Shown here: positions 1,298 to 56,734 of the stretch, one piece after another
How the letters are laid out: every line of letters starts with the position of its first letter
Position numbering within the stretch: the first letter of the stretch is position 1
Virus record (IMG/VR): IMGVR_UViG_3300049617_000207
Span: 1 to 64,000 of that record
DNA: 64,000 nt
Strand: one strand, 5' to 3'
Source of the DNA: a virus
Translations under genes and position numbers: made by a program
Notes under the pieces: model-generated
What the model was told of the DNA's origin: nothing
The model's database searches: none
What the model saw: only the letters and a program-made list of their open reading frames with translations

Positions 1298-1890
1298 ACG
1301 CGCTCGGCTGCCGCCTTCTCATCGCGGAAGACCGGCACGTCGGCCATCGTATCGGCCTCGGCGTCGAGGTCGGGGTTGACGATGCGGATGGGCTCGGCGT
1401 AGGCGCCGCTGCCCTCCTCGCCCTGCTGCGACTGCGCCCGCGCGGCGAGCGCCTGCGGGGTCTTGGCGCTGCTCGCCTCCGCGCGCTTGCGCTTGGCGAT
1501 TTGCTCGTCGGCCGCTTCGGAGACGCGGCGCGCCGCTTCGTTTTGCAGAGCGTTGTTCGCGACGAGCCCGGAGCCCGACATCGGTGGCGCGAGCGGGCCG
1601 TCGTGATCCTCGTCGACCGGCACGGGCATGCCCGCGGGATAGGAATAGAGCGGCGGTAGCCCCTGGTCGATGTAGGCGACATTCTCGGGTGAGTCGATGA
1701 GATTCGCGGCTTCTTCCATCGTCATGTAACAGAGGTTATTGAGGAATTGACGGAAGCCGTGGTTCGTCTCGACGACCCGGCCTTTCTCATCTTTGCTAAG
1801 GTCGCGGGTGACTTGCGCCGTGACTTCGCGGTGACGGCTGCGAACGAGTACCTTTTTTCCCATTAGTGCATCCTTGCTTTCATGGATCAT
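1294..1890 (-). CDS. hypothetical virion-module protein
   Basis: Start re-called at ATG 1890 (ATGA overlap with upstream stop), MIHESKDALMGKK. Confidence 0.6.
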   Translation of the reverse strand: MIHESKDALMGKKVLVRSRHREVTAQVTRDLSKDEKGRVVETNHGFRQFLNNLCYMTMEEAANLIDSPENVAYIDQGLPPLYSYPAGMPVPVDEDHDGPLAPPMSGSGLVANNALQNEAARRVSEAADEQIAKRKRAEASSAKTPQALAARAQSQQGEEGSGAYAEPIRIVNPDLDAEADTMADVPVFRDEKAAAERV

Positions 1891-2837
1891 ATCACCATTT
1901 GTATGCCGAAGTCCGGCAGCGTGAGCGAGAGAATCGCCTGCTCTTCGTCGTCGAGGTCGCCCGAGTACGCTTTCGAGCCGTAGCTCTCCGAGCCGCCGTC
2001 GACTGAGAGTGAGGCGAGGCCGTTCGAGATGCCGCGCCAATTCTGTCGCAGAATCCGGTTCGCAACGATGCGAGAGACGCCGTTCGAGACGGCCCGCGGC
2101 ATCCCGCTGCTCCAATCTATGCCGTCGATGAGCACGCCTTGTGGGAGCGGGTTGGGCGGCGCAGGGTTAAGCTCAATCGCGGCGCCGGTGTCGGGATCGA
2201 ATTGGAGTGGCGCGCCCGAAAAATACTTCGTCGGCGGGAAGCCGAACGTGTAGTGAATCTCGATGTTCGTGCGGCCGGGGATAAATGAGTAACTCGAAAA
2301 CGGCACGGCGGCGTTCGCGGTGAGCAGGAGCGCGCGCGGCGGAATGATGATCGTGCGCGCGTTCGTGTCGACCAGGATGTCCGCGTCCTCGATCCCCGTG
2401 TAGGGCGGCGTCGCGCCACTCGTTTCGAGCGAATAGGGCGCCTGGAAGGCGGGTGTATTGGGCGGCTCCAAGAAGCCCGCGCGGTTGAATTCGGTGCCGT
2501 CGATAGCGCGGAACCGCGAGAACCGATACCAGGGCATCGAGGGCAGGATTCGGATGAAGACCACGTTGACGCCCGCGATGTAGCGGTTGGGCAGCACGAT
2601 AGTATCGTCGCCCGTCCCACTTGCGAAGTAGACGCGCCTGCACCAATCGAGCGGCGTGCGGATCGCGGAGACGACCATGCTGGAAATTTCGGGGATGAGG
2701 TCTTCGTCGAGCATGGCGATGAGGCTCGTGTAGGAGCCGTCTTGGTCCTGGAATTGCGCGAGGCTGTTGCCCAGGAGTTTGCCGAACACTTGGCGCGCGT
2801 TGCAATGATTGCGCGGCTGATCGGTGTCGTAGCGCAC
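1887..2837 (-). CDS. putative head-tail adaptor/connector
   Basis: Follows MCP; NIEIHYTFGF, MPRAV and SLSVDGGSESY resemble gp6/gp15-type adaptors; true start may be upstream (ATA 2876). Confidence 0.55.
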   Translation of the reverse strand: MRYDTDQPRNHCNARQVFGKLLGNSLAQFQDQDGSYTSLIAMLDEDLIPEISSMVVSAIRTPLDWCRRVYFASGTGDDTIVLPNRYIAGVNVVFIRILPSMPWYRFSRFRAIDGTEFNRAGFLEPPNTPAFQAPYSLETSGATPPYTGIEDADILVDTNARTIIIPPRALLLTANAAVPFSSYSFIPGRTNIEIHYTFGFPPTKYFSGAPLQFDPDTGAAIELNPAPPNPLPQGVLIDGIDWSSGMPRAVSNGVSRIVANRILRQNWRGISNGLASLSVDGGSESYGSKAYSGDLDDEEQAILSLTLPDFGIQMVI

Positions 2838-2980
2838 GAACCGCGGCGTGATGTACGGTGCGGGCGTTGGTAGTATCGGATCATCCTCCGTGATGCGCGC
2901 GTCGGGCGTCTTCCATGACGCGGGGCCGCTTCGTGCGAGACCGGCGCACCTGGACCGTTGCCGCGTAAAAGGCGGGGCGA

Positions 2981-2993
2981 CCTGCTAGAGTTT
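2981..2993 (-). promoter_or_regulatory. putative late-promoter motif AAACTCTAGCAGG (other copies 4263, 6824, 19976, 33378, 37988)
   Basis: Near-identical 13-mer, always in minus orientation upstream of structural or membrane genes. Confidence 0.55.
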
Positions 2994-3000
2994 GGGATCA

Positions 3001-3041
3001 AAAAAGCGAGCCGCCGAATCGCCGCTCGGTGGCTCGCTTTT
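3001..3041 (-). terminator. intrinsic terminator after MCP
   Basis: AAAAGCGAGCC...GGCTCGCTTTT hairpin with A/T tails on both sides. Confidence 0.8.
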
Positions 3042-3093
3042 CCTCACTCACTCACGAGTAAAGGTGCAGGACTTGAGCTTCACGCGACGATTG

Positions 3094-4173
3094 TCAGTTG
3101 AGGCTCGACGGGAGTGAGAGGTTGAGGCCGGTCAAGAGCGCCTGCGCCTGAGTGATGCCCACCTGCAGCATCGAGGTCTCGTAGACGATGCCGCGGTCGG
3201 CCGTTTGGATCGCCATGAGGTCCACGTAGTGCAGAGGGTCCACGTCGACCATCTCGACGGCGTTACCGGAATTTTTGTCGTCGGTCGTCTGATCGTCGAG
3301 GAAGATGATGCGCTCGTAGCCCGTGACGGGATCGGGGAGCATATACTGATCGTCGATAAGGTCGACCGAGCCCGTGCCGAAGTTCCACGAGTCGACCTGA
3401 AAGCCGCCGGTGAATTGGCCCGTGCTCGTCTGCCCGGTCTGCCGGATCGCGTAGTAGAGGCCGAGCAGTTCCGTGAGCACTTGCTTCATCGCGTACGACA
3501 TGATGAGCGCGCGCGTCTTGAAGCCCGCGCGCCGTACGGCGAACATGAGTTGAACGAAGAGCGAGTACCGCACGCCCGAGCCGCCGCCTGCGGAGACGTC
3601 GAGAATGTTGTAGCCGTCATTCATGATTTGCGTGAGCAAACCGTCGAAGATGAGACCGCCCGACGCCGACGAGTCGCCGTTGAGGATCGCCCACTCTTCC
3701 ATGAGCGCGGTGTTTATCATCTTGACGTCGCGTTGCTGCGCCTTGATGTCGATGTAGGAAGCGTCTTGCGCTTTGTCCTGCCACGGGATCGTGACGGTGT
3801 CGCCGAGGTTGGCGTACGGCCGCGCGATGTATTCGTATTGCGGGTCGACGGCGTTCGGCAGGCCGCCCTTGGCGAAGAAGCCGCCGCTCGGATCGGTGCC
3901 CAAGAATTTGCTCGTGGTCTGATTGAGACCGCTATTGGAGACGAGCTTGTAGTAGGCGTGCGCTTTGCCGTTGCCGGTTTTACGCGACAAGCGTTTGCGC
4001 ACCGGCGTATCGACGTTAGCGGCTAACTTGAGCTTGTCTTCGAGGTCTTGGCGAGTCAGTTCGAGGCCGACCACGCCCGTCGTCGACTTCGCGATTTCGA
4101 GCCGTTTCTTGTCGAAACTGCGCAGCGTCGAGATGATTTCGTTCTGCGAGAGAACGGTTGCGGGTCCTGCCAT
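3094..4173 (-). CDS. major capsid protein
   Basis: 359 aa, directly after protease, AGGAG RBS, terminator behind; IAKS/TTG...LTRQDLEDKL resembles the KS-cleaved N-terminus of Twort/SPO1-like MCPs; FDGL motif. Confidence 0.85.
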   Translation of the reverse strand: MAGPATVLSQNEIISTLRSFDKKRLEIAKSTTGVVGLELTRQDLEDKLKLAANVDTPVRKRLSRKTGNGKAHAYYKLVSNSGLNQTTSKFLGTDPSGGFFAKGGLPNAVDPQYEYIARPYANLGDTVTIPWQDKAQDASYIDIKAQQRDVKMINTALMEEWAILNGDSSASGGLIFDGLLTQIMNDGYNILDVSAGGGSGVRYSLFVQLMFAVRRAGFKTRALIMSYAMKQVLTELLGLYYAIRQTGQTSTGQFTGGFQVDSWNFGTGSVDLIDDQYMLPDPVTGYERIIFLDDQTTDDKNSGNAVEMVDVDPLHYVDLMAIQTADRGIVYETSMLQVGITQAQALLTGLNLSLPSSLN

Positions 4174-51035: not shown

Positions 51036-52522
51036 GTCGGGACACCGTCGCGACGGATCGGCCAGGGCCGATGCGGCAGGCCCTTCCAGGACGCGGGCGG
51101 CCACGTCGCACGCTCGTCGTCGTAGGCGGCGAAGGCGAGCCGCGGCGGCGGGCCAGGATCGCGCGGCGGATCGGCGTTGACCGCCTCCCATCGCGCCTGC
51201 TGCTCGATGTCGCGCGGATCGTACGAGTCGTGCCAAACCACAAACCCGCAGTCGAGGTGCCGGTAGCGAAAGCAACACCGCAGCCCTTGGCCGTCCCGTC
51301 CGTCCATGTCGACGACGCGGCGCCGGTAGCAGTCGGGGCAGCGCGTGTACGCGGGGCGCGGCCACGGAATCGAGGTCTTCGCGCGCGGCTCGCTCACCCG
51401 CGCGGCTCCATGCTCTCTTCGACCTTCTCGTTGAACCAGGCAAGCGCCACGCGCGCGGCAGCCAAGAGGGCGCCGTCGCCGTCGTTGGGGGCGTCGCCGC
51501 TCTGCGTGTAGCTCCCGAGGTCGGCGCGCCACGAAATGATCCGCGGGTTGTGGCGCTGCACCCACACCTCAATGCCGATGTCGCCGACCTCGATGTTGGT
51601 CGCGAGGAGGGCGCCGGGCCGGGCGAACCATTCGAGCTTGCAGGCGCACGAGCAGCCGAAGTAGCGGCCGTGGTTGCACATCGACTCGTGGAAGTCGAGG
51701 TCGGCCACGGGCACGAGGGTCATGGGCGCGGTCGGCGCGGTCATGCCGACACCGTGCGGCCCAGGCGCGCGGCGGCGGTGGCAGCCTGCTTGCGGAAGTG
51801 CTCGCGATGTTGGGCGGCGTGACGGTCGGCGTCTTCGCGTGTCGGGCACGGCGAGTTTGCTTGCACGCCGTTGATCGAGACGAAGAAGACGGTGCCGCAA
51901 TCGTACCAGGGGACTTCGACGACCATGACCGAGCGAAAGAAGCGCCCGAGCATGAGGTCGACGCAGTCCGCGCACACGTACTTCGCGGGCACGTCGCGCA
52001 GAGTCTCCGACGCCCATCCGTCGGCGTTGCCGCTCTCGCCGCAGAGCGGCAGGCGGATGCGGTCGCTCGGCACGGTGAGGTGGCGGGTCGGGCTGCTCCG
52101 GCGGTTCGTCTTGAGGGTCTCGGTCATCGGGTCGATGCCGTCGATTTTTGCCATGTGGGTCGTGTCCTTTGGGCGCATCTCGCGCCCGGTGTCGGGGTGC
52201 CTTCATGCTACGCTTTGCGCGCTGGAAAGTCAAGCGCATCGGGGCACCTCTCCGTCACTCGTCGCATACGAGGGCACGAGGGGAAAAGAAGAAGAGGCGA
52301 TGGTGAGTCGCCTCTTCGGGGGTGGGATCGGGCCGCCTGGCCCGGTTAGAAGACGTCGGTGTCGAGCGCCCGGCGCGCGTCCGCGTAGGCCGCGAACGCG
52401 ACCTCGGCGCCGCGCGCCTCGCGGCAGAATCGCTCGCCGCTCTTGGGATCGTAGGCGTGGCCGCAAGCCGGGAAGGTCGGGCACTCGTACGCGTACCATG
52501 ATACGCCCTGCGCGCTGGAAAG

Positions 52523-53240
<718 letters not shown>

Positions 53241-53798
53241 GGCGCCCGCTTGAGGTAGTCGAAGACGCCTTGCCGGGCGAGGTCGCTGTAGCGTTGCGTG
53301 CCGAACATCGGCCGCCCGCACGCCGAGCACGCGTACCATCCGACGTGCTCCGGCGCCCCCGGCCGCAGGAGCGTGAAGCCAAGCGGCGCCTCATCGACAC
53401 GCGCCACCGGCAGCACGTGGCGCCCGAAGAGACAACGCACGGCCTGCAGCACTACGGGTCCTCCTCGCTGCGGAACGCGCGGTCGGCGCCGTCCTCATCG
53501 TCGGGGTCGACGGGCTCGATCCCGTAGCCGACGATAGTGCCGCGCGTGGCGTGCTGCGGGATCATCCGCTTGAGCTTGGCCTCGGCCTCCGTGAACGGCA
53601 TCTCCGTCGAGAGCACCGCTGCAACGCGGACCTGCGCGCCTTGGAGGTCGTCGCCGCGGCCGAGATAGACGACGAAGAGCCGGTAGAGGTGCGTCGTCTC
53701 GTCGGGCGCGCTCACTTACGCACCGGCCGCGGCGCGCCTGGCGCATAGCCCCCGGCGAGCACCTCGCGCAGTTGCGCGATAGCCGTGGCGCCCGTGAT

Positions 53799-55153
53799 GT
53801 GCTTTCGATGTGTGCGTCCTTTAGGCAGCATTTTCACGCCTCCCGAGCCGGGTGCCCCCCGGCGATAACTCACTTAAAAGCGCCAACTGCGCTCGCCCTA
53901 GGATATTCCGCGCGGCGTTCACGTCGGCGTGGTCGCGATGACCACACGCTACGCAAACGAACCGCACGCCATCCCGATTCTCCGGCGCGACGTGCGCGCA
54001 CTCGGCGCACGTCCGCGACGTATTCCTTGGATTCACGCTAACGACTACGCGAGCGGCACATGCTGCCTTCTCGCGGATTAACGTGACCAATGTTCCCCAT
54101 GCAACATCCCCGATGCTACGATTAAGGCTCGACTTCGCCGCGACGTTCGTGCCCGGCTTCTCGACTGTACCTCTCGCCGACCGCATCATGTTTCGCACGG
54201 TGAGAGCTTCGACCGCGATGCCGTCATACGCGTTCACGATCCGGCGCGAAAGTTTATGCAGCGCGTCACGTCGTGCGTTCGCCTCGCGCTCCCGAGCCCG
54301 CGCCAATCGTCCTACCGCCGCCGCCCGCGCCGGGTCCTTCCAATTCACACAACGGCCCAGGCTGTCCGTTGCGGTACGCTTGGCGACAACGCGCGAGGCG
54401 ACCGCCACGCGCTCCGCTCGCTTGGCGAGATGACGCGGATTCGTGACAAGTTCCCCGTCCGAAGTGGCGGCCAACACGGTCACGCCAACGTCAAGTCCGA
54501 CGACGGCGCCGGTGCGCGGGAGCGGCTCAACCTCGCGGTTGCACTCGAATATCGCGTGCCAACGCCCATTCTTCTCGACCACGAAGGCACGACCGAACGC
54601 GGGAATGGGCCGCCCCTTCCGCATGGTGATCGTGCCAACGCCGGGGACTCGCACTTTCGTCTGCGCCGCGTTGAATTGGAAGTAGCGGTCGCCGTGCGAA
54701 ACCTCGATTTGATTCCAGCGTGAGGCTGCACGATAGCGCGGGAACCCACGCCCCTTGCCTTCCTTAACCCGGCGGAAGAACGCCGCGAAGGCGAGGTCGA
54801 GCCGGTGGAGAACCGCGTCCTGGCACTCCCGATGAATCGCCTTTACGCCAGGATCGTCGGCCCGTAACGCGGTCAACTCTGCAGACTGCATCTTTACGGA
54901 CACCGTAACGCGGCGCATCCGGTACGCGTCTTTTCGCTCTTGCAGCGCCGCGTTGTAAAGATTCCTAGTGGCGTGCAGGACGTGCCAAAGTCTTCGCTCC
55001 TGTGAAGCGGACGGGTATAAGCGAACCTTGTGCATCCAGCGCATATTCTCTACCACTAAGTATAACACACTAGCGTCGCGGGCGGGGGGCGCCAGGTGCG
55101 TAGCCGCCCGACAGGACATCTCGTAACTGCGAGATGGCGACCGAGCCGGAAAT
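53799..55153 (-). mobile_element. tnpB cassette carrying a recoded host-gene 3' end
   Basis: Diverged duplication of a ~29-codon gene end (55070-55156 vs 53712-53801) brackets tnpB; no tnpA. Confidence 0.7.
53821..55044 (-). CDS. tnpB: TnpB RNA-guided endonuclease
   Basis: KVRLYPS, LYNAAL, GFPRYR; RuvC GLDVG/IAVEAL/HADVNAA; CAEC-CVAC zinc finger. Confidence 0.93.
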   Translation of the reverse strand: MRWMHKVRLYPSASQERRLWHVLHATRNLYNAALQERKDAYRMRRVTVSVKMQSAELTALRADDPGVKAIHRECQDAVLHRLDLAFAAFFRRVKEGKGRGFPRYRAASRWNQIEVSHGDRYFQFNAAQTKVRVPGVGTITMRKGRPIPAFGRAFVVEKNGRWHAIFECNREVEPLPRTGAVVGLDVGVTVLAATSDGELVTNPRHLAKRAERVAVASRVVAKRTATDSLGRCVNWKDPARAAAVGRLARAREREANARRDALHKLSRRIVNAYDGIAVEALTVRNMMRSARGTVEKPGTNVAAKSSLNRSIGDVAWGTLVTLIREKAACAARVVVSVNPRNTSRTCAECAHVAPENRDGVRFVCVACGHRDHADVNAARNILGRAQLALLSELSPGGTRLGRRENAA

Positions 55154-55354
55154 GTGCTCGGGCATCCGCTGCCAATGCGTCACGAGGAGCTTCGCCTGCT
55201 CGACGATCCGCGCGTCGGCCTGCGAGAAGAGCATCGTGTCGAGCCCGGCGAGGATCGCCCCGCGAAGCTCCGGCTGCTGAATCCGCTCCGCGACCGTGCG
55301 CGCCGTAGCAATCGCCTGCTGCGCCGGGGTCGGCTCGACCGTCATCTTACTCAT
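55070..55354 (-). CDS. hypothetical protein (host gene of tnpB cassette)
   Basis: Intact ORF whose C-terminus is duplicated downstream of tnpB. Confidence 0.7.
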   Translation of the reverse strand: MSKMTVEPTPAQQAIATARTVAERIQQPELRGAILAGLDTMLFSQADARIVEQAKLLVTHWQRMPEHISGSVAISQLRDVLSGGYAPGAPRPRR

Positions 55355-55465
55355 GGGCGCCGCTTCGCGTCTCGCGTACGCCGTCCCTACGGCCAGGGCA
55401 CCCCGTTACGTTGTTTTTCGCGCGACGGCGTGGTATGCTAGAGGCCACCAAGGAGGGCAAGTCTG

Positions 55466-55897
55466 TTGCCTAGTTTCAACCACATAACGCTCGTGGGCAA
55501 TCTCACGCGCGACCCCGAGATTCGCTACGTCGACGGCGGCGGCAAAGCCGTTACCAAGTTTTCGCTTGCCATAAATCGCAAGACCAAGGGCGCCGACGAA
55601 ACCATGTTTATCGACATCGTCGCATGGGATCGCCTGGGCGAAGTCTGCAATCAGTATCTCAAGAAGGGCGACCCCGCGCTCATCTCTGGACGCCTCGCCA
55701 TTCGCAAGTACGACGACAAGGATGGCAATAAACGCACGGCCGTCGAGGTCGTCGCAAGCGACATGCAGATGCTCGGAACCAAACGCGATGCCGCGGCACC
55801 GGCACCGGCACGTAGCGGCGCAGGCGGCGGATACGCACCGGCGAGCGGCGGCCGCACGGAAGAGGAAGAGGATGCTTTCGACGACATTCCCTTCTAG
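55466..55897 (+). CDS. ssb: single-stranded DNA-binding protein
   Basis: LVGNLTRDPE...DDIPF; AAGGAGG RBS. Confidence 0.95.
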   Translation: MPSFNHITLVGNLTRDPEIRYVDGGGKAVTKFSLAINRKTKGADETMFIDIVAWDRLGEVCNQYLKKGDPALISGRLAIRKYDDKDGNKRTAVEVVASDMQMLGTKRDAAAPAPARSGAGGGYAPASGGRTEEEEDAFDDIPF

Positions 55898-55928
55898 CGC
55901 GCTGAAAAGCCCAAGGAGGGGCGCACCG

Positions 55929-56444
55929 ATGCAACCGCTAACCGAAAACCCTATGCCGACCAAAGTGCGCGTGAGCGCCGAACCGAAGTTTACCCAATGG
56001 TTATGGTTCCAGCGAGACCGCTCGGACTCCGTGGGCCGCGTCGCACGCTTTGCGTTCGCCGACGTCGGCCCCGGCGGGCGCGAGCGCCCCTGCTGGCCGC
56101 ACGCCTCCAAGACCGTCGGGCACTTCGTCATGCACCTGCGCACCGAGCACCCGAAGGACCCCGACGCGCCGACCGAGATAGTCGTGCGCGACGCGTTCTC
56201 GGAGTTTCGCGAGTTCCTCGCCTCGGGCGGGAAGGTCCCCTTGCGACACGGCGGCGTCCGCGCGACCGTCGCCAACGTCAACCGGCACCGCGGGTACGTG
56301 CTCCCCGGCGATACCATCGAAAAGATCAAAGAGCTTGCCGAGCACGGCGACGTGAAGCAAGGCAAGCTTCTTGAGCGGCTCGTGGCCGCCGAGCACCGGC
56401 GGGTCTTCGGCAAGCCGAAACCAAGCGAGGCCGTGCCGTCTTGA
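55929..56444 (+). CDS. hypothetical protein, YozE-like N-terminus and possible DNA-binding C-terminus
   Basis: FTQWL..QRDRSDSVGRVA; AAGGAGG RBS. Confidence 0.5.
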   Translation: MQPLTENPMPTKVRVSAEPKFTQWLWFQRDRSDSVGRVARFAFADVGPGGRERPCWPHASKTVGHFVMHLRTEHPKDPDAPTEIVVRDAFSEFREFLASGGKVPLRHGGVRATVANVNRHRGYVLPGDTIEKIKELAEHGDVKQGKLLERLVAAEHRRVFGKPKPSEAVPS

Positions 56445-56467
56445 CCTTTTCTGCGCGCTAAAGTAGT

Positions 56468-56734
56468 ATGAAGGATATTATGCCATCCCCAAAGCGAATC
56501 GCCTCCGGCGTGATGGGCCGCCCTCGGACTCCCGAGACCGAGCGGCTCGTCGCGTACGGCCTGCACATCACGCCCGACAAGAAGAAGAAGCTCGTCGAGG
56601 TGAAGGACTTCGAGGGCGTCTCCATCCGCGAATGGATCGAGACGCAGATCGAACGCGCCTGGGTGAGCATGCAAGAACGCAAAGCCGAAGAGCGCGCCGA
56701 CAAGAAGCTCGGCCGCCAACGGATCGCAAGCTAA
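56468..56734 (+). CDS. putative RHH-type regulator
   Basis: MGRPR...EGVSIREWIETQI; promoter at 56441. Confidence 0.5.
   Translation: MKDIMPSPKRIASGVMGRPRTPETERLVAYGLHITPDKKKKLVEVKDFEGVSIREWIETQIERAWVSMQERKAEERADKKLGRQRIAS

Follow-up and report, generated by a model that had tools for sequence, protein, structure and literature searches.

How a tnpB gene can lie inside a phage gene, in a genome that encodes no TnpA, with a second version of the end of that gene on its far side, is the question raised by the locus described here. The locus lies in the window, the 64,000-nt stretch that was analyzed, which is the first 64 kb of the virus record IMGVR_UViG_3300049617_000207; this record of 96,014 bp has direct terminal repeats and is rated complete, and the G+C content of the window is ∼67%. 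All genes treated at the TnpB locus are on the minus strand, in the order 5′ part of a small gene (X), replacement tail of X, 25-nt spacer, tnpB, omegaRNA scaffold and displaced original end of X. The locus is probably a TnpB-omegaRNA cassette without a transposase that acts, or did so until recently, as an RNA-guided element of "intronless homing" and carries its own rescue of the target gene.

An Interrupted Gene with Two Ends

Gene X (94 codons, 55354-55070, minus strand) is interrupted after codon 66. As it stands, it ends ...MPEHISGSVAISQLRDVLSGGYAPGAPRPRR and a stop codon, with the upstream of two copies of its tail, and the displaced copy begins 17 nt past the tnpB stop. The parts on which the argument rests are as follows.

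55159..55354, minus: native 5′ part of X, codons 1-66, up to ...ATG CCC GAG (open reading frame [ORF]; 91% identity over residues 1-66 to P0002, a homologue introduced below)
55070..55158, minus: replacement ("rescue") 3′ end of X, AGCACAT followed by the diverged codons ISGSVAISQLRDVLSGGYAPGAPRPRR and TAG (28 codons and stop; 9 of 20 positions mismatched to the guide, the first being position 8)
53821..55044, minus: tnpB, 407 codons from ATGCGCTGG (intact ORF)
53712..53803, minus: displaced native 3′ end of X, start-less, HITGATAIAQLREVLAGGYAPGAPRPVRK and stop (29/29 residues identical to the P0002 tail)
53452..53715, minus: gene Y, 87 codons, with its GTG start at 53715 overlapped by the TGA of the native X end

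The first-pass annotation, a reading of the letters alone, had described two homologous peptides flanking tnpB that differ in most of their codons, the downstream one overlapping the start of the next gene. Indeed, both peptides are present and are 72% identical over 29 amino acids (E 4.5e-13 in a flank-against-flank search), and the TGA of the downstream copy lies over the GTG of Y. The alignment of the tails covers 28 codons, of which 6 are identical and 15 carry synonymous differences, while the other 7 encode a different residue; silent sites between the tails thus appear essentially saturated. The upstream copy had also been taken as AT-richer and imported. The second part agrees with the P0002 comparison below, which makes the copy imported or re-spelled, but the AT-richness is weak, with a G+C content at third codon positions of 0.77 in the upstream tail against 0.81 in the downstream tail (0.91-0.93 in the flanking genes).

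The Downstream Copy Is the Native Gene End

A word-indexed search of 5.8 billion proteins returned, apart from the X of the window itself, a single homologue, P0002. This protein of 95 amino acids, encoded on a 590-bp NCBI/ENA contig, is an X without interruption. It is 91% identical to the X of the window over residues 1-66 (6 changes in 66), and its tail equals the displaced downstream copy in 29/29 residues, a comparison made at the protein level only. The upstream tail differs from that of P0002 in 7 residues and also in length. Because the P0002 tail matches the displaced copy and not the upstream one, the downstream copy is the lineage's own gene end and the upstream copy is foreign or re-spelled. 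The first-pass annotation had left the originality of the downstream copy to be judged on empty alleles, and the one found carries the downstream version. The divergence begins abruptly at the junction, with no decay with distance, residues 47-68 of P0002 being the same as those of the window. The relic shows 0 residue changes against P0002 and the expressed N-terminal part 6 in 66; this fits a recent insertion, or a tail that may have been refreshed from recipient genomes.

Diverged tandem copies of small genes are frequent in phages, and the two tails could in principle descend from tandem paralogues of X, with tnpB having landed in the second and deleted its 5′ part, and without any rescue logic. 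This reading was rejected on the P0002 evidence and is very improbable: P0002 joins the same N-terminal part (91%) directly to a downstream-type tail in one 95-residue protein, the homology of the two copies starts exactly at the right end (RE) of the element, and the upstream gene has one tail only.

An exhaustive HMMER search yielded four distant X homologues. The most conserved block of the family is HW.xMPEH(I/L)TGxxAIxQLxxVLxGGxAPGP, and the insertion point is at the start of this block. Homing endonucleases usually target conserved motifs, and the target here likewise lies in the most conserved motif of the X family. The variant residues of the upstream tail (GS..AIS) are present in the natural homologues P0124 (which has a sub-threshold DUF7236 match) and P0126, and import from a divergent allele is therefore favored over random drift.

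The Guide Position Falls on the Displaced Gene End

To delimit the element, 80 metagenome and 79 genome loci of TnpB relatives were collected. Conservation 3′ of tnpB in these relatives extends to ...GCACAC(G/A)ACGAA and then ends; the boundary is fixed to the base by eight copies of one insertion sequence (IS) with different flanks in a single metagenome-assembled genome (MAG), and by more than 40 relatives. The RE of the window ends ...ATCGAA at 53804, so that the guide begins at 53803 with AGCACATCACGGGCGCCACG. The duplication of the X tail thus starts at the first base past the family RE end ...ACGAA, which is the guide position.

53804..53956, minus: omegaRNA scaffold and right end, ending ...GCACACATCGAA, overlapping the tnpB 3′ end (matches model R1)
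53784..53803, minus: position of the guide template, AGCACATCACGGGCGCCACG, directly 3′ of RE (initial 20 nt of the displaced native tail)

The guide had been assigned to the displaced copy in the first-pass annotation, which is correct, but RE had been ended at ...ATCGAAAG, 2 nt off; the guide starts AGCACATC at 53803. Its proposal that the junction is ambiguous by a shared AGCACAT had to be given up, since the RE boundary is exact and AGCACAT lies inside the guide and target.

The scaffold is ∼150 nt long and has four helices, with compensatory changes at 18 of 20 consensus pairs across the 41 sequences of alignment A4, which includes the window. The covariance model R1, built from A4, aligns to the window over its full length with 121 bits, as expected by construction with the window in the training set. 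No other site was found for the guide 20-mer at ≤3 mismatches within the window, or for the guide 16-mer at ≤2 mismatches in the whole 96-kb genome.

The TnpB protein matches PF12323 (HTH_OrfB_IS605), PF01385 (OrfB_IS605, RuvC) and PF07282 (Cas12f1-like TNB), all above cut-offs, and is homologous to the ISDra2 TnpB structures 8bf8 and 8h1j (E 2e-27). Its closest cellular relatives, at 51%-59% identity, come from Eremiobacterota/WPS-2 MAGs. The RuvC residues D185/E279/D374, already noted as intact in the first-pass annotation, and the zinc-ribbon cysteines C346/C349/C364/C367 are invariant across alignment A3 (26 TnpB sequences, the window and 25 homologues).

The replacement tail is identical to the guide at positions 1-7 and mismatches it at positions 8, 9, 11, 15 and 17-20. 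Cutting by ISDra2 TnpB requires a target-adjacent motif (TAM) and a matching target, with the cut 15-21 bp from the TAM (PMC8612924), and is abolished by double mismatches in positions 1-12 (PMC10097598). If these mismatch rules carry over to the TnpB of the window, the rescue copy of the carrier would be immune.

The Left End and the Transposase Are Lost

In the relatives, the left end (LE) measures 170-230 nt and contains a GTGCCA..TGGCAC hairpin and, just upstream of tnpB, a (C/T)ATACT or TATAAT box. A profile built from 15 of these LEs found nothing near the tnpB of the window; as controls, four full-length LEs were recovered at E 7e-21 to 7e-33. The complete 96-kb genome encodes neither a Y1 nor a serine TnpA (PF01797, PF00239). 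With neither LE nor TnpA, TnpA-type (IS200/IS605) transposition is excluded for this copy. The absence of tnpA had been recognized in the first-pass annotation; its further statement that IS605 ends are missing holds for LE but not for RE and the omegaRNA, which are fully recognizable. The phage genome has one full TnpB copy and a 37-residue remnant of another element, and relatives in one MAG have eight copies.

What lies between the replacement tail and tnpB is short:

55045..55069, minus: AT-rich spacer, 25 nt, with an extended -10-like box TGTTATACT at 55059-55067

From its sequence, the spacer is read as the putative innermost remnant of LE. Its box TGTTATACT resembles the -10 box directly before tnpB in the relatives and may act as a promoter.

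Two TnpBs that are 76% identical to that of the window, L025 and L041, lie on short contigs that hold only the left and only the right part of their loci, respectively; they are different elements, with no overlap in their DNA. No flank duplication was found at either. In L025 (positions 1-330, ENA OBLU010313207.1), the LE profile detects the inner LE only (model positions 53-175), the outermost ∼52 nt being absent there too. An ORF on the minus strand seems to begin within this LE remnant, and the contig is too short for the RE side.

The Same Layout in Other Phages

The flanks of tnpB genes were screened for protein-level duplications at 131 loci first and then at 82 and 78 further viral loci (∼290 in total), with filters on identity, stop codons and length, low-complexity out-of-frame matches being frequent in GC-rich DNA. 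Among the first 131 loci, the window was the sole match. The further viral loci gave two clean matches, L259 and L191.

L259 (IMGVR_UViG_3300038417_000606, 979-2760) is on a 40-kb AT-rich phage contig and shows a 3′-end rescue. A 168-codon gene ends ...LKELSQGTHYETVKKISPQFDFLALLP and a stop, followed after 12 nt by tnpB; the diverged copy comprises the last 27 codons. RE ends ...GAATGTCAA, as in its relatives, and is followed by the native tail ...KELREHIEYETILHTTPQLDFLSLLL with its stop, and then by the next gene. Neither LE nor tnpA was found in this cassette. The flank before its target, …CTTAA, resembles the IS605-type TAMs TTTAA and TTAAC.

L191 (IMGVR_UViG_3300027869_000006, 1875-3782), on a 110-kb contig, is the mirror image, a 5′-end rescue of a gene antisense to tnpB. 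On the LE side, the gene has a new ribosome-binding site and a new start, MITK, together with 25 N-terminal codons in diverged form, and the original 5′ end with its own start adjoins an RE ending ...GTTGCCAC. The rescue copy mismatches the guide only at positions 9, 10 and 12. No Pfam or PHROG family was matched by the genes of L191. The locus seems to retain part of LE and a TTGACA-N17-TACAAT promoter.

The TnpBs of L191 and L259 are distant relatives of that of the window, the best tblastn segments with the window as query being 27%-28% identical for L191 and 38% for L259. At each of the three loci, the rescue copy lies towards LE and the native copy at RE, 0-25 nt of extra DNA beyond the coding end were imported, and the rescue copy equals the guide for the first 6-8 nt and then diverges. 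One speculation is that this regularity of 6-8 nt results from repeated conversion, which would erode the re-spelled tract to the limit of seed-mismatch protection. The three loci may, as a tentative proposal, represent a recurrent phage class of natural RNA-guided home-and-rescue drives, that is, TnpB cassettes without TnpA and LE that carry a re-spelled gene end and take their guide from the displaced original, the TnpB of the window perhaps being TAM-shifted.

Three further screen matches, L318, L301 and L194, were rejected as non-coding DNA repeats rather than gene-end duplications. In L194 (1825-4300), 37-bp direct repeats occur in several copies on both sides of a phage tnpB, with 94%-100% identity.

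Proposed Homing with Rescue and Its Alternatives

The sequences show the anatomy of the locus, the native nature of the downstream copy, a nuclease and scaffold that are intact, an element that has lost LE and TnpA, and the recurrence of the layout in other phages. Cutting, the TAM, immunity, copying and the way in which the replacement tail was first acquired are inferred, and on balance the interpretation given in the first-pass annotation is partly supported. Under homing with rescue, the cassette would be transcribed either as part of the X operon or from a -10 box of its own, and TnpB would bind the scaffold from its own 3′ end, the guide being the initial ∼16-20 nt of the native X tail that was displaced. 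A co-infecting related phage with an uninterrupted X would be cut inside the conserved MPEHITG codons, and the break would be repaired by recombination with the occupied genome, with the 5′ part of X as one arm and the native tail plus gene Y as the other. The cassette would thereby be copied in, or the rival simply removed. The replacement tail brought by the cassette would keep the carrier functional, and the carrier itself would remain uncut, its tail mismatching the guide at positions 8, 9 and 11.

The same anatomical evidence would serve a competitor weapon without copying, in which TnpB destroys co-infecting relatives with a native X, by localized marker exclusion or killing, the rescue provides self-immunity and the cassette is transferred rarely or never. 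Homing endonucleases are indeed described as killing competitors too divergent for conversion (review PMC13565253), and the target lies in a conserved motif common to the distant X homologues. However, the cassette is flanked by long perfect homology arms (the X 5′ part; the native tail and Y), and a cut close relative is therefore expected to be repaired from the carrier. Destruction without copying is thus improbable, although the two outcomes are not exclusive of each other.

Several observations weigh against homing with rescue, and the TAM is the main doubt on activity. The last bases of the X 5′ part are presumed to be the TAM side of the target. Relatives at ≤60% identity insert after a CCNNGG-type motif, the family flank, and the eight-copy IS inserts after T-N-C-C-N-C-G-G. 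The target in the window is preceded by …GATGCCCG (…TGCCCG), which agrees with CCNNGG at best at 5 of 6 positions, and only with a 2-nt shift of the junction; because CCNNGG is absent at this target, TnpB might fail to recognize the empty allele. If the empty allele has CCG for Pro65, the flank by the target would read …CCGG, in partial agreement with the family motif, and the CCC of the carrier would be a synonymous change that breaks the TAM. Of 136 highly conserved columns, the TnpB of the window departs from the family at 7 and its nearest relatives at 0-2, and the last omegaRNA helix of the window is weaker than in the relatives, with two non-standard pairs. One occupied and one empty allele are known, the latter as a protein from a 590-bp contig, and no further occupied allele, with the same cassette at the same site in a second genome, was found in any of the collections. 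Close relatives of the phage or the cassette were found in none of the viral, metagenome and genome collections, and a megablast search of the phage collection with the window gave no match. The first-pass annotation had asked whether other TnpBs are flanked by recoded gene ends; L259 and L191 are, as unrelated cassettes, but the layout is absent from all 130 metagenome, genome and early viral relatives. Finally, the origin of the replacement tail is unexplained.

The main rival is a fossil insertion. A tnpB-only IS would have been placed by TnpA in trans into the X of a P0002-like phage. Homology-facilitated illegitimate recombination with a divergent allele of X would later have repaired the gene and at the same time removed LE; TnpB would be a passenger or decaying, with no homing. 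The right junction is indeed a normal IS junction, the TAM-like motif of the relatives is missing, the last scaffold helix is weakened, TnpB has its seven deviations at conserved columns, and a single occupied locus is known. The tnpB frame, catalytic residues and scaffold are nevertheless intact. The layout also came about in at least two further phages whose TnpBs are unrelated, with the rescue at the LE side and the native copy at RE, and only 0-25 nt beyond the coding end came in with the rescue copy in all three cases.

The deviations of TnpB bear on the same point. When they were mapped via the alignment to ISDra2 TnpB, whose TAM contacts are Y52, S56, K76, F77, Q80, T123 and N124 (PMC10097598), four of the seven (Y54S, Y71H, A121Y and L122F) were found to lie at most 3 residues from a TAM contact (hypergeometric p ∼0.003, with the radius chosen post hoc). 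They are therefore clustered rather than scattered, a hint, from sequence, of a shifted TAM rather than random decay, and the TnpB of the window may have adapted its TAM to the present target. A fossil insertion is less likely than homing with rescue.

Among the eight near-identical copies of the tnpB-only IS with a 58% identical TnpB (L091-L097, L113, L124, MAG CAWBES01), all complete ones follow T-N-C-C-N-C-G-G, a target motif longer and richer in GC than is usual in this transposon family.

Relation to Known Systems

TnpB preserves its transposon by cutting vacated sites. The cassette belongs to the same family as the IS200/IS605 TnpB-omegaRNA systems such as ISDra2 (PMC8612924; PMC10097598), with the same domains, an omegaRNA overlapping the tnpB 3′ end and a guide just outside RE. 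Cutting of element-free sites by TnpB followed by recombinational copying is established (10.1101/2023.03.14.532601), and a TnpA-independent, TnpB-driven drive between homologous plasmids has been shown (PMC11870625). In contrast to the window element, which has no LE, no TnpA, a single copy and a replacement for the displaced gene end, IS200/IS605 elements have LE, need TnpA for new insertions and interrupt their target without repair.

The closest order of parts is that of the mobile-ORF (mORF) gene hybrids of fungal mitochondria, known from atp6 of Allomyces macrogynus and from atp6, atp9, cox2 and nad3 of Glomus; the mORF endonuclease cleaves ORF-less alleles, and these elements are mobile (PMC3630166). 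As in the window, the gene core is followed by a foreign C-terminus, then by the endonuclease ORF and the relic of the native C-terminus. The relic matches the gene of a near relative that is uninterrupted, and at the DNA level the inserted copy has diverged strongly. The mORF elements are organellar and use protein-guided LAGLIDADG or GIY-YIG enzymes, whereas the phage locus has an RNA-guided TnpB, with the relic doubling as guide template. Since the relic is the guide template, the element of the window records its own target, and its immunity can be read from the guide mismatches.

In T-even phages, the free-standing homing endonucleases SegF, SegB and Mob, known for intronless homing, are likewise encoded by genes between conserved phage genes, are expected to act at co-infection, and tell self from non-self by substitutions in a nearby conserved gene (PMC13565253). 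They are protein-guided and intergenic and have no duplicated gene end, whereas the cassette in the window is intragenic and carries a spare tail. Spread by homing between co-infecting phages is regarded as a theoretical possibility in the same review. The engineered HomeR and cleave-and-rescue drives (PMC7968924; PMC7951863) combine an RNA-guided nuclease and a guide placed in a needed gene with a recoded, cleavage-resistant 3′ part of that gene; they are synthetic Cas9 systems in insects, unlike a natural TnpB in a phage, where X may or may not be needed. IStrons (IS607/IS605 with a group I intron; PMC10690162) are also TnpB elements that spare the interrupted gene, but they restore it by RNA splicing, whereas the window has a spare tail at the DNA level and no intron was found. 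Indeed, no Rfam family, group I intron included, was matched in 52500-56500 at E up to 1.

By analogy, the best reading of the locus would be an RNA-guided counterpart of the mitochondrial mORF hybrids and of home-and-rescue drives. Full-text searches of the literature turned up no report of a TnpB cassette that carries a rescue copy. The anatomy needed for spread at co-infection is present in one locus, without a transposase, and this locus holds a cleavage-resistant rescue of the target gene, a feature that engineers devised independently for gene drives. If the cassette is active, TnpB can exist as a pure homing endonuclease in viruses, which would help to explain tnpB-only genes in phage genomes; the locus would also be a natural test bed for the seed-mismatch limits on self and non-self, and a route for the horizontal movement of gene ends between phages. 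A single sequence shows the target, the guide and the immune copy, and each of these claims is therefore directly testable by plasmid assay.

Other Features of the Locus

The displaced tail is part of a longer reading frame that enters RE:

53712..53831, minus: relic ORF, 39 codons, MLPKGRTHRK followed by the native tail, with its ATG inside RE (gene call P0127 in the protein library)

Its ATG is preceded by GGGAGG-N7, with GGGAGG at 53844-53839, and an AAA insertion partly creates the GGGAGG-N7-ATG arrangement. The AAA insertion also weakens the last omegaRNA helix. The relic ORF, whose stop overlaps the Y start, may be translated and may thereby preserve the translational coupling of Y. Promoter and terminator scans and single-sequence folding at the locus were uninformative.

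No Pfam or PHROG family was matched by X or Y, and a search for homologues of Y returned the window's own protein as sole match. Neither relatives of X or Y nor the P0002 contig came to light when the viral, metagenome and genome collections were scanned with degenerate DNA and peptide queries.

A second small IS605-type remnant lies at 52921-53209 of the window (plus strand), antisense in a neighboring gene. It holds ∼58 nt of tnpB 3′ coding region close to the window family (R1 match at 53043-53103, 36 bits, coding only). It is without R1-type scaffold helices and has hairpins of another type, GCCCCTGCC..GGCATGGGG and CCAGGG..CCCTGG.

The C-terminal motif of X, of ∼37 residues, matches 15 separate stretches of P0123, a protein of 2105 amino acids in which DUF3331 is matched as well. 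The tail of X may be a repeat module present as a free-standing copy.

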